This document shows, piece after piece, positions 17,559 to 46,754 of a DNA stretch of 64,000 nucleotides. The DNA is taken from assembly GCA_013239625.1 (NCBI GenBank), contig MU053184.1, forward strand, positions 140,220 to 204,219, read 5' to 3'. Under the pieces are notes generated by a model. The model searched no databases and was not told where the DNA came from. It saw only the letters and a list, made by a program, of their open reading frames with translations. Numbering within the stretch: position 1 is the stretch's first letter; every line of letters begins with the position of its first letter. The position numbers and the translations under genes are program-made. The DNA is from Lama guanicoe. Its lineage: Eukaryota.

Positions 17559-18962
17559 TGTGTTAGTTTTCTCTTGCTGTGCAGCAAATTACCTTAAATG
17601 TAATGGTTTAAACAACCCACACGTTTCTGTAGGTCAGAAGTCCAGCATAGTGTGGCTGGATTTTCTTCTTAGGGTGTCACCATGCTAAAATCAGGGTATC
17701 CACCAGGGCTCAGTTCTTATTTGAGGCTAAGGGTCCTTTTCCATACTCACTGGTCAGTGGTAGACTTCAGTTCTTCCTTGTTGAAGAAGTGAGGTTCCCA
17801 TTTCCTGGCTCACTGTCAGCTGTCATCTGCTCTCTGCTCTTAGGGCCACCCATACCTTTTCTCATGTGGCCTCTCCATGTTCAAGCTAGCTGTGGTTCAT
17901 GCAATCTTTCTCTTCTACCCTCCTCTTATGCCTCCGACTTCCTCTTATACCCTCCTCTCCTGCCACCTGATAAAGTTCTCTCCTTTTAAGGCCTCATGTG
18001 ATTAAATTAGTCCCACCTGGAAAATCTCCCCTTTTTTGCCAGGGGAGGGGAAGGTACTAGTATTATTCCTGTTTTTCTTTTTAATACAATTTTTAAAGAT
18101 TATGTTCTACTTACAGTTGTTACAAAATATTGGCTATATTCCCCATGTTATACAATAGATCCACGTAGCCTGTCTTATACCCAGTAGTTTGTACCTCCCA
18201 CTCCCCCATCTCCATATCACTGCACCCCGCCCCCACCACTGGTAACCCTAGTTTGTTCTCTGTATCTGTGAGTCTACTTTTCTGTTATATTCACTAGTTT
18301 GTTGTATTTTTTAGATTTCATATGTAAGTGATAGCATACAGTATTTGTCTTTCTCTGTCTGACTTATTTAACTTAGCCTAATGCCCTCCAACTCCATCCA
18401 TGGTGTGACAAATGGCAAAATGTGATTCATTTTTATGGCTGAGTAGTATTTCATTGCACGCATAGTTAACCAATCCACAACAAAGGAGACAAGAATATAC
18501 AGTGGAGAAAAGACAGCCTCCTCAACAAGCAGTGCTGGGGAAACTAGACAGCTACATGCAGAAAAAATGAAGTCAGATCACTCTCCAACACCACACACAA
18601 AAACAAACTCACAGTGAACCAAAGACCCAAATCCAAGACCAGATACCACAAACCCCTAGAGGAAAACACAGACAGAACACTCCCCGACATAAATCACAGC
18701 ATTATTTCTTTGGATATTAGTAGACAGAGGATGTTGCAGCCATCAAACCATCAGCCACTGCAGCTGTGTACCCCGTGGGGATTCAGGATGGAGAAAAATA
18801 GGATCCTGGGGCTTGAGAAGTCCCGACAATCTCTCTTGTTGAAGGTCTGCTGTGCCATGTCGTATAACTAAATCATGGGAGTGATAGATCATTAAATTCA
18901 CAAGAATCATAAATTAAATAGTGGACTCTTGGGGGTCATGCCTAGAAATTCTGCCTACCATA
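17559..18962 (-). mobile_element. MLT1 (E/F-like) LTR, split by the insertion at 18036-18824
   Basis: Begins 'tgtgttagttttctcttgctgtgcagcaaattacc' and ends 'cctagaaattctgcctaccata'. The halves rejoin across the insertion. Confidence 0.8.
18036..18824 (-). mobile_element. Composite retro-insertion: L1 3' end (minus, ~18036-18464) + L1 ORF2 piece (plus, ~18465-18715) + ERV LTR piece (~18715-18820)
   Basis: Three recognisable modules bounded by a degenerate TSD, gaaaatctcccctttt (18020-18035) / gacaatctctcttgtt (18825-18840), 12/16 identical. Confidence 0.8.
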
Positions 18963-38579: not shown

Positions 38580-40249
38580 ATACTGAGTTTTCCAAGGACA
38601 CACAGCTAGTAAGTGTGTCAGGCTTCAGAGCTGATCTCTTCCCAGGATTTCATGCTGGTTAATTGCGGGGGCGAAGTTTGCCGGAGATCCACTCGGTGTT
38701 CCAGAAGTTTGCTTTCAGACTCAGGCCTGCCCCTTTCCACTTGGAAGTTGGATTTGTCTGTCAGGCCATTTCTTCCCACCTCAGCTCTTCCAATATGGCT
38801 CCCCTGTTGCTGTATTTGCCAAGTCTCCTCACTGCTGGCACTCCCTGACAGCCGTGTGTCCCTTGGCCTGATTGCAGCCCTCCCCCTACCGTGACTGCTG
38901 GCACTCGGGTGTTATTAGGCCCCAGCTGTCTCCTCCTCCGCTTCTTGACCCTTCACTGCTCCCCTGGGCCCGGGCTGCTGGGTCTGTCTGCCTTGACCAC
39001 TGGCCTTCAAGCTCAGGTCTGGGCCCCTGGCGATGGCTCCCTCCCAGCACTGCTTTGCCTGCCTCTGCCCAACCTGGTCGGTAAATTCATCCCTGGCTGT
39101 GGTCCCTGCACCCCGCCTCCACACCCACATTCACAACTCGACAGTCGGCGAGATTTAATCAACTAGTTCATTGAGCAATCCAGGTGTATACCCACCTGAT
39201 TTGAAGTGATTTGGCTTAATGAAGATGATCACGTGACCCAGGTTTTCTGGGGCAGCCCTAATTTTAAATATTATGTCTCTTTGTCCTCCCAAAAACTGAA
39301 TACTGAAAATGCCACTATTTTGGCACATAAGCACCATCTTCTAGATTGCCTCAGGCAACCAGGGGAAAAAAAAAGGCGTACATCCCTAGTCAGACAATGT
39401 GCCCTACCTTTGGTTCAGGACACATAGGTCTCTGTTAAATCTTTATTTTTGTCAGCGTGGGTGAGCCTAAGAGAAAACAGCTTTTTTGTTTGTTTTTAAA
39501 AATCTCATCAGTATTGGTGTCCTGTTGGTGCCTCTGCTTTCTGTAAAAAGCACTTTATTGTCTTCATTGAATGGCCAGCATGTTTCTTGCTGAGGAGTGG
39601 CAGTTTCTGTGGTCTTTGTATCTCTAGTCAGCACCTAATACCATTTGTTGTGACAACCTAAGTGAAGTAGACACCTTCCCAGTGAGATCTGGAGGGTGTA
39701 TCTTCGGTGTTCTGTTCTGTCTTCTAAGCTCCCAGGGAAATCACATTCCTCGCAAATGTCCTTGGCTTTGGCTCCTCAGCTGCAAATGCCTGCCCCCGCC
39801 CGCCCTGGAGGGGAGCTGGGTGAGACCATGCAGAGACCTCAGGACCTCGGAGCACCCCAGCCCTAGGCTCCCCAGCCCCGCCCCAGCTGCATCCTGGTCT
39901 AGTTTGGCCCTCCAAGAAGACATTGCTTCTCCCGCAGGTGGCCTCCCAGGCCTGGTTCCAACCACTGAGGAAAGAAAATCTCCCCAGAAGGAAGGATATT
40001 TTGAGGGGGCACAGCTGCCAGAATGGGGAGGCTTGGCAGAGAGAAGTAGTCCCTGCAGTGGGTTCTGAGGACCACTGGTTCCCTGAGATGCTCCCCAAAG
40101 GGCTCTGTGGCCAACAGGCTTTACAGTGGCTCAGGGCAGCCACTGGCTTATGAAGTCTCTGAGAAGTTCTGTATTACAGTCACCAGCTTCTCCTCAGTAT
40201 ATTTGAACACAGCACCCCTCTCTCATCTAACAACCTTTCATATCTTAAA

Positions 40250-45783: not shown

Positions 45784-46221
45784 TTCATTAGTTTCCTGGG
45801 GCTGCTGTAACACATTACGACAAACTACGTGGCTTAAAATAATGGGAATTTATTCCCACACAGTTGTGTTGTCCGGAAGCCTGAAATCAAGGTGCAGCAG
45901 GGCCGTGCTCCCTCTGAAGCTTCTAGGGAGGGATCCTTCCTTGCGTTCTCCAGCTTCTGGTGTCCCCGTGTACTTTGGTTTAGGACTGCAGGTCTCCAAC
46001 CCCTGCCTCTGTCTCCTTGTGGCCTTCTTCCCTGTATGTTGAAGTCGCAAATCTCCCGCTGCCTTTCTCTTCCTGGATTTAGGGCCTCAGTCTAGGATGG
46101 TCTCATCTCAAGATCCTTAACTAAATTATATCAGTGAAGACCTTTTTCCAAGCAAGATCACATTTCCAGGTGCTGGGGGTTAAGACATGTCATTTTGGGG
46201 ACCTCCATTCAACCTGCTGTA
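45784..46221 (-). mobile_element. MLT1C-like solo LTR
   Basis: 'attagtttcctggggctgctgtaaca...catctcaagatccttaactaaattatatcagtgaagacctttttccaagcaagatcacatt..ccattcaacc'. Confidence 0.88.
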
Positions 46222-46754
46222 GACCTGGATGCCACCAGCTGGGCTCCGCCAGACCTGAGGAGAAAGCATTTGATGTGCAGAGGAACAGATGCAGGCAGAA
46301 GGGATGTAGGGAAGAACCCTGTGCGGTAGAAACGGAGCAGGAGGCAGATGCAGAGAAGGACGGGAGCATTTAGCAGGAGAGATGCACTGTTGGCACATCA
46401 GGGGCCAGGACTCTGGGACGAAAGCCACATCAGACACCTGCCATCAACAGCCAACGAACGTGTGCTGAGGTTTTACTCTGAGGCCCGACAGGGAAGTCAA
46501 GGTGTCTGAGCCAATGCTGAGGCCCAGGGTTTGCAGACTGAGGACAGGAATTACCAACGGAAAAGAGCCCTGGATACAAAGCACGCTGAGACCCAGGTGA
46601 CACCACAATGGTGAAAACCAGCAGAAAACTAGGATGGGGTTGGATGGTGATCGGAGACGTAGTTTCAAGTCCAAAATTTTCTCAAGGGGCAGACAGCAAA
46701 CACTCAGAAAGACAGGCTAGGTGTTGGAATTAATCATTGTCATTGATAAATAAT

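Follow-up and report, generated by a model that had tools for sequence, protein, structure and literature searches.

How did one short piece of L1 come to carry C in place of about half of its T, while the sequences joined to it changed in the ordinary way? The piece lies in a 64-kb stretch of genomic DNA (the window, by which we mean the whole stretch that was analysed). An earlier note, made from the letters of this stretch, had described 18465..18715 as an L1 ORF2 fragment with one-directional T>C change and had suggested that it might be a fossil of hyper-editing by ADAR. The anomaly in base composition is real. Between 18471 and 18700 (230 nt) there are 104 A, 66 C, 36 G and 24 T, and among the dinucleotides no TT, 11 TC, seven TA, six TG and one CG, so that the 24 T, 66 C, absence of TT and 11 T followed by C counted earlier are reproduced exactly. 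This is the T-poorest 230-nt stretch of the window: the minimum of 24 T is reached at 18468, compared with a 0.1 percentile of 31 and a median of 68. The sole other stretch of the window with 30 T or fewer, at about 46221, is ordinary G+C-rich sequence. A further extreme stretch, near 38841, is likewise ordinary and G+C-rich.

The fragment belongs to a composite that occupies 18053-18822 of the window. Its parts are given below, where L067 denotes a second locus with the same composite and Rep-X is the working name used here for a dispersed repeat of roughly 400 nt.

18053-18079, minus strand: patterned A-rich tail of the composite (window 18053-18095 aligns locally with L067 1328-1360)
18080-18454, minus strand: L1 3′ module (end of ORF2 and 3′ UTR), sense on the minus strand, with 81-84% identity to many L1 3′ ends
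18455-18713, plus strand: L1 ORF2 fragment (matches break at 18455-18457; ordinary copies align over 18456-18714)
18461-18685, minus strand: putatively hyper-edited core, with A>G on the minus strand (T>C on the plus strand) at 25 of 49 ancestral sites
18690-18713, plus strand: unedited end of the L1 fragment (1 of its 10 ancestral T has changed), next to the deletion junction beyond which Rep-X follows
18714-18822, plus strand: internal piece of Rep-X (about positions 27-135 of the repeat; in the family alignment the copies begin about 26 nt further left)

The two L1 pieces stand head-to-head. In L1 coordinates about 600-700 nt separate the regions from which they derive: of ORF2p, the fragment reaches to about residue 1000 and the 3′ module takes up again at about residue 1229, and in intact copies the gap measures 505-720 nt. 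The minus-strand translation of the 3′ module has a sole match, to residues 1230-1256 of the 1275 residues of L1 ORF2p (E 0.09). The ORF2 fragment corresponds to ORF2p residues of about 915-1000, and a comparison copy of the same stretch, once translated, matches human L1 ORF2p over residues 919-996 of 1275 (E 1.9e-25). This fragment is sense on the plus strand and hence antisense in a minus-sense RNA; the strand that would have been edited carries the L1 3′ module in sense orientation. The earlier assignment to L1 ORF2 is thus confirmed, but the limits have to be moved, with the piece itself extending over 18455-18713 and its changed core over 18461-18685. On the plus strand the A-rich tail starts with GGTAC; it is common to the window and L067, and in alignments the tails of other L1 copies are unrelated to it. 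An ATTAAA hexamer is present on the minus strand (TTTAAT at 18080-18085 on the plus strand), 27 nt upstream of the end of the unit shared with L067, a position compatible with a transcript ending there, although this is only a hint. Rep-X, judged by its sequence, looks like a solo LTR. An old repeat on the left side of the composite ends near 18038.

As reference for the substitutions we used real copies from the same genome (2.05-Gb assembly), taking the column state common to at least 60% of the copies. The comparison copies are 27 of the best 40 of 3,796 candidates and were chosen as the best matches to the edited query; such a choice favours copies with the same C residues, and its bias therefore runs against a conclusion of hyper-editing. 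Over 252 columns the fragment differs from these 27 copies at 44 positions, 26 of which are T>C, the others being seven G>A, five A>G, two A>T and one each of T>G, C>T, A>C and G>C. With seven copies as reference, there are 24 T>C among 41 differences. When each of the 27 copies is scored against the rest, it shows 7-22 differences, with 0-5 T>C apiece (67 of 400 when pooled), and the T>C share of the fragment compared with that of the copies has a binomial p of 2.9e-10. Leaving out T>C, 18 of the 252 columns differ, and the fragment then resembles both the copies (mean of about 15) and the control module described below. One mismatch type dominates the cluster, as in an ADAR footprint, and the claim of a one-directional change stands when it is tested against real copies, with 26 T>C against one C>T and five A>G. 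The earlier note had itself raised the objection that an ordinary L1 subfamily might already carry these residues; at each of the 26 sites with T>C, no more than six of the 27 copies have C (range 0-6), and so no subfamily carries these residues. DNA editing by APOBEC3 was also considered. G>A makes up 7 of the 44 differences (six of them found only in the window), compared with a mean of about 2.3 per copy; the excess is weak, and the main signal lies elsewhere.

The 3′ module, proposed earlier as an internal control, served as such and has an ordinary, symmetric spectrum. Compared with 11 copies it shows 36 differences (eight C>T, seven T>C, six G>A, four T>G, three T>A and two A>G, with other types making up the rest), and among the 29 changes found only in the window four are T>C. 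The Rep-X piece, compared with 15 copies, has 16 differences with a single T>C; it was copied together with the composite and is free of editing. The T>C burst does not extend beyond the segment that is antisense L1 when read on the minus strand. Inside this segment the change is dense and bounded: 25 of the 49 ancestral T in 18455-18689 have become C, compared with one of ten in 18690-18713, a part that is nearly unchanged although most of its ancestral T stand in a TA or TT context. A high density inside a bounded tract, between flanking modules that are normal, is again a feature of ADAR footprints. No polymerase is known to err at a rate anywhere near 25 in 49, and conversion of about half of the adenosines is the level expected for promiscuous ADAR editing of a long perfect duplex.

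The changed sites also depend on their neighbours. Sorted by the next base on the plus strand, T has become C at 15 of 20 sites before A, 6 of 8 before T, 2 of 10 before C and 2 of 11 before G, that is at 21 of 28 sites before A or T versus 4 of 21 before C or G (Fisher p = 1.5e-4). Read on the minus strand, A>G has occurred at 15 of 20 sites with a 5′ U, 6 of 8 with a 5′ A, 2 of 10 with a 5′ G and 2 of 11 with a 5′ C, and G is depleted one base 5′ of the changed A. The sparing of TC pointed out previously is real (2 of 10 changed), but it is not specific to C, as TG is spared too (2 of 11). As far as the sequence tells, this context matches the 5′-neighbour rule of ADAR on the minus strand. 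Depletion of G upstream of the edited A in hyper-edited RNA clusters is reported to be the known ADAR motif (PMC4365171), and 5′-GA is described as a weak ADAR target (PMC8586724). Since T>C before G creates a CpG, the low fraction for a 5′ C may be partly secondary, through later CpG decay; of the T>C-before-G sites, 18530-18531 today reads CA and 18685-18686 still reads CG. An enrichment of G on the 3′ side, the other half of the ADAR motif, is not seen among these sites (7 of 16 changed with a 3′ G versus 18 of 33 with other bases, which are small numbers). Context alone is insufficient to identify ADAR, the 5′ rule also being the hotspot of pol eta.

Does the composite exist elsewhere in an unedited form? 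When both L1 pieces together served as the query, a single further locus turned out to cover the junction, L067 on contig C8676. The composite lies there at 1328-2017, with the same inverted L1 arrangement, the same junction, the same A-rich tail and the same neighbouring repeat as in the window. The alignment of L067 to window 18069-18715 extends over 660 columns at 74%, and 18719-18809 is matched by the Rep-X of L067. Outside 18053-18822, no homology was found between the window and the flanks of L067, nor in the 30 kb around L067; homology between the two loci stops at 18053, and the flanks further left align to L067 with a score no better than shuffles. L067 is thus a paralogous, source-type locus with unrelated flanks, as is looked for in the case of a retrocopy. 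It is unedited. It has T at 22 of the 24 alignable T>C sites, its ORF2 piece (L067 1693-2017) has 85-88% identity to ordinary copies, and the changes in the fragment that are private to one locus number 39 in the window (22 T>C) versus 16 in L067 (two T>C). As this unedited locus has the same junction and tail, the inversion is older than the editing.

The two loci differ in structure as well. The L1 homology of L067 (1693-2017) continues 62 nt beyond that of the window, and the Rep-X of L067 is complete and lies 420 nt away from the L1 fragment there. The window is without 507 nt that are present in L067: the 62 nt of L1, a 420-nt stretch of other sequence, and the 26 nt with which Rep-X begins. 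This internal deletion has a 2-nt microhomology at its borders. The missing 507 nt continue both elements seamlessly, so that the window form is derived and the L067-type form ancestral; the window copy is the structurally derived one. By eye, two smaller gaps are seen as well, one of about 14 nt in the window, at the inversion junction, and one of about 25 nt in L067, inside the 3′ module. The private substitutions shared by the window and L067 (four and eight in the L1 parts) are within the range of random pairs, and one of the 16 Rep-X differences of the window is shared with L067. As there is no excess of shared private substitutions, L067 is not demonstrable as the direct source: either the copying followed closely on the original insertion, or a third locus gave rise to both. 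Junction-spanning DNA searches for further composite copies gave half-matches only, among the best 40 of 1,596 or 2,834 candidates. A pattern search for the junction gave 11 matches, versus six for the reversed control, and by the matched strings alone two of the 11 are the composite, namely the window and L067.

The ancestral composite has the layout of a twin-primed, 5′-inverted L1: an inverted upstream L1 segment is joined to a tailed 3′ segment, and the two stand head-to-head in opposite orientations. Twin priming goes back to Ostertag and Kazazian (2001) and is taken up in PMC11702581, in whose data set the breakpoints lie 1-10 bp apart, with deletions in 22 of 32 cases and duplications in ten of 32. 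The breakpoints of the ancestral composite are about 600-700 nt apart, and so lack the closeness described in that account.

These results show a one-directional, clustered and context-dependent change, together with an unedited sister locus sharing the junction. They are probably best explained by ADAR hyper-editing of a minus-sense RNA with the antisense L1 segment in it, followed by copying back into DNA. Of the models weighed, editing of the minus-sense RNA ahead of reverse transcription is the only one that yields T>C on the plus strand and limits it to the part able to pair with sense L1 RNA; it is the model of the earlier note. Window 18053-18822 would accordingly have been copied secondarily from an older composite, made up of an A-rich tail, an L1 3′ end, an inverted ORF2 piece and a neighbouring repeat, and we infer that the route led through RNA, by way of a minus-sense transcript. 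The ORF2 piece, antisense in this transcript, would have paired with sense L1 RNA of the then-active family to give a long near-perfect duplex. An ADAR-type adenosine deaminase, which is the enzyme we infer, would have turned about half of the adenosines of that strand into inosine, with a preference for A after U or A. Reverse transcription would have read inosine as G, and entry of the cDNA into germline DNA would have left T>C on the plus strand. The template proposed in the earlier note, a minus-strand RNA containing the antisense L1 piece, gains support from the unedited L067 with its identical junction and tail. Its poly(A) at the left end, on the other hand, has to be given up: what stands there is the patterned A-rich tail common to L067, not a fresh poly(A).

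The sole tail of the copy is the inherited A-rich one, with no poly(A) run after it. For a target-site duplication no match passed any of four cut-offs (8 to 15 nt, 0 to 3 mismatches), the same result as with shuffled sequence, and the copy therefore lacks the marks of a canonical L1-mediated insertion. An 8-mer with one mismatch near 18053 and 18713 was rejected as a target-site duplication because it is too weak. Splicing was rejected as the cause of the 507-nt gap, the borders by eye not being GT..AG even when the 2-nt microhomology or editing-created sites are allowed for; the gap could be a template jump or a later deletion. A complementary (inverted) partner that would make the RNA double-stranded was found neither in the 64-kb window nor within 10-20 kb of L067 (30 kb around it), and the duplex must therefore be assumed to have formed in trans, the partner strand presumably being L1 mRNA. 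Pairing in trans with L1 mRNA of the active family may, as a tentative extension of this reading, not only have caused the editing but also have delivered the RNA to the L1 reverse transcriptase, whether as a passenger of the L1 RNP or through template switching. If true, this would explain why the copy has neither a poly(A) nor a target-site duplication of its own, and why 507 nt were skipped beside an end that was still unedited and still paired. Hyper-edited antisense-L1 retrocopies would then form a general class. They would preserve, as fossils, the sense/antisense L1 dsRNA of germline cells, and would make repeat ages misleading by shifting a sequence by about 10% at once.

We may wonder at this stage whether the same pattern could arise with no RNA stage at all, through DNA-templated copying or repair by an error-prone polymerase of the pol eta or pol iota type placing G opposite T. 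The hotspot of pol eta is WA (A preceded by A or T), which equals the preference for A after A or T seen on the minus strand, and a copy with neither poly(A) nor target-site duplication, but with a deletion at a 2-nt microhomology, is what templated DNA repair can leave. The conversion, however, is 51% (25 of 49) over 225 nt. The misinsertion rate of pol eta is about one tenth of this, and pol iota adds only a few bases at a time. Moreover, the change stops exactly at the antisense-L1 border, while the 3′ module and Rep-X, copied along with it, are normal. A polymerase tract has no reason to respect such a border, and we regard this origin as unlikely. A DNA duplication might instead have come first, with the fragment later overwritten by cDNA of the locus's own hyper-edited transcript, through RNA-templated repair or gene conversion. 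This sequence of events would account both for the absent poly(A) and target-site duplication and for a changed tract that ends sharply within a homologous unit longer than itself, but it calls on two rare events where one suffices, there is no inverted partner in the window to make the transcript double-stranded in cis, and the left end of the shared unit coincides with the L1 tail, which fits RNA-based copying better than DNA duplication. It is, if anything, the more unlikely of these two alternatives.

A joint origin of the inversion and the T>C change during the L1 insertion itself is highly improbable. In such a scheme, ADAR would have acted on the DNA strand of a hybrid formed in twin priming, or the reverse transcriptase would have misinserted G opposite U. 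ADARs are reported to deaminate dA in DNA/RNA hybrids in vitro (PMC5389660), ADAR1 is reported to bind the L1 RNP (PMC5224506), and A>G is found on the minus strand, the one that the cDNA of a twin-primed segment would form. Against this, L067 is unedited although it has the same junction, tail and neighbouring repeat, so that the inversion predates the editing; this rules out editing during twin priming, be it by ADAR on the hybrid or by misinsertion, and the first-strand cDNA (the 3′ module) is unaffected in any case. Editing of a hybrid in the later, RNA-mediated copy, for which the cDNA is the plus strand, predicts A>G on the plus strand, where only five are seen. Least credible of all is an origin in an assembly or sequencing artefact, in ordinary ageing or in an L1 subfamily with these C residues. 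Old L1 copies do differ at 7-22 sites over this stretch, which carries no weight beside the T>C share (p = 2.9e-10) and the rarity of C at the changed sites (0-6 of 27 copies). As for an artefact, at least half of the sampled 31-mers of 18300-18900 are present in 14 public runs from at least six studies under three organism labels. The share in these 14 runs is 0.70-0.72 at the level of the word index, and the best holder may be the source sample. RNA runs in the word index hold 0.05-0.20 of the sampled words of 18300-18900, a figure that says nothing on expression.

Editing of the minus-sense RNA followed by reverse transcription has close counterparts. In cultured human cells, three of 235 L1-mediated pseudogene insertions are reported to carry clustered T>C changes confined to inverted Alus and attributed to ADAR (PMC11702581, Mendez-Dorantes et al., preprint). 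In those insertions as described, and in the window as we read it, an RNA would have been hyper-edited in a double-stranded repeat, reverse-transcribed and fixed, with the changes confined to the repeat that pairs. The cases of that preprint are somatic and experimental and involve inverted Alu pairs in cis, whereas the window holds an old, germline-fixed copy in which an antisense L1 is edited and for which no partner in cis was found; unlike those insertions, the window copy has no recognisable poly(A) or target-site duplication. ADAR-type A>G tracts are also reported in integrated proviruses, of BLV and, as cited in the same paper, of HTLV-2 and STLV-3 (PMC8025556). There too, local A>G hypermutation of an RNA template was kept after reverse transcription and integration; the BLV-type cases, however, are infectious retroviruses with tracts of about 70 nt and at least seven changes in the LTR, whereas the window has 25 changes over 225 nt in a non-LTR fragment that a chimeric RNA would have carried. 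The hyper-edited clusters of transcriptomes (Porath et al. 2014, PMC4365171) share with the window a dense one-directional A>G change in repeats with depletion of 5′ G. They are, as presented there, RNA-DNA differences, whereas ours is a DNA-DNA difference between paralogs with no 3′ G enrichment. As for L1 RNA, one study reports that it found no ADAR1 editing over more than 2.5 kb (PMC5224506). The full-text literature searched contained no description of a germline L1 or retrocopy fossil of ADAR hyper-editing; an earlier description is possible.

The window therefore appears to hold a natural, germline-fixed, L1-antisense instance of a known process, with its own unedited reference copy. It would be a germline-fixed case of an ADAR-hyper-edited RNA written back into a mammalian genome, in which the sister copy serves as a built-in reference; in the literature searched, as far as those sources describe it, the same process is represented only by infectious retroviruses and by the three of 235 insertions in cell culture. 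A parallel lies in the DNA editing of retrotransposons by APOBEC3, which, as Carmi, Church and Levanon are said to have described in 2011, turns C into U on the cDNA and so yields G>A on the sense strand of the element. Both amount to a deaminase burst fixed in the genome, by which one retroelement copy jumps in a single step. In our case, by contrast, the change would be A to inosine on RNA, read as A>G on the RNA-sense strand. A single step by ADAR, as by APOBEC3, could thus shift the sequence of a retroelement copy by about 10%. The fragment appears to diverge at 44 of 252 columns, compared with 18 of 252 without T>C, and such a difference distorts both the dating of repeats and their assignment to subfamilies. 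From strand-asymmetric A>G clusters in repeats one could in turn gauge the rate at which edited RNA enters the germline, and tell which RNAs were double-stranded there.

The fragment of L1 ORF2 for which we favour ADAR-type RNA editing also carries seven G>A changes, six of them private to the window, compared with a mean of about 2.3 per comparison copy. They are found in the contexts GG>AG (three), GA>AA (two) and GC>AC (two). The change at 18531 is accounted for by the decay of a CpG that editing had created; the others could be due to chance or represent a weak cytidine-deaminase trace. To the right of the fragment, and also at the sister locus L067 of the same genome, lies a dispersed repeat of about 400 nt that we call Rep-X. 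It has TGT at its start, the flanks of 15 copies are unrelated to one another, and it looks like a candidate solo LTR family. The features concerned here and below are as follows.

Window 18464, 18489, 18531, 18546, 18565, 18617, 18672: G>A sites of the edited fragment
Window 18714-18822: Rep-X, internal piece
L067 2437-2830: Rep-X at the sister locus
L067 1332-1692 (G000:C8676:22734092-22734452): L1 3' module (end of ORF2 and 3' UTR)
G000:C7496:4182328-4182639, minus strand: L043, ordinary copy of this part of L1 ORF2

Elsewhere in the window, the A-poorest stretch (38700-39170) and the second T-poorest stretch (46200-46500) are both G+C-rich and of non-repetitive appearance; neither is a hypermutated repeat.

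Among the ordinary ORF2 copies, A>G on the L1 sense strand accounts for 10 of the 18 differences in L043 (0-5 in other copies). These sites are scattered, mostly in an AA context within an A-rich sequence, and the excess may be due to chance. Two of the 11 comparison copies of the 3' module, L011 and L017, each show 15 C>T changes on the L1 antisense strand (G>A on the sense strand). Since many of these lie within a C-rich tract where the alignment is poor, they may reflect alignment noise rather than APOBEC-type editing.

The 3' module of L067 itself shows a one-directional bias, on the same strand as in the window fragment but milder: 16 T>C versus two A>G, whereas the 11 ordinary copies pooled give 56 versus 55 (Fisher p = 0.0035 for the comparison with L067). 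An ADAR-like neighbour context is absent from the changes in this module (12/94 versus 4/47). The changes are dispersed across the module, and L067 is possibly itself a lightly edited, RNA-derived copy.
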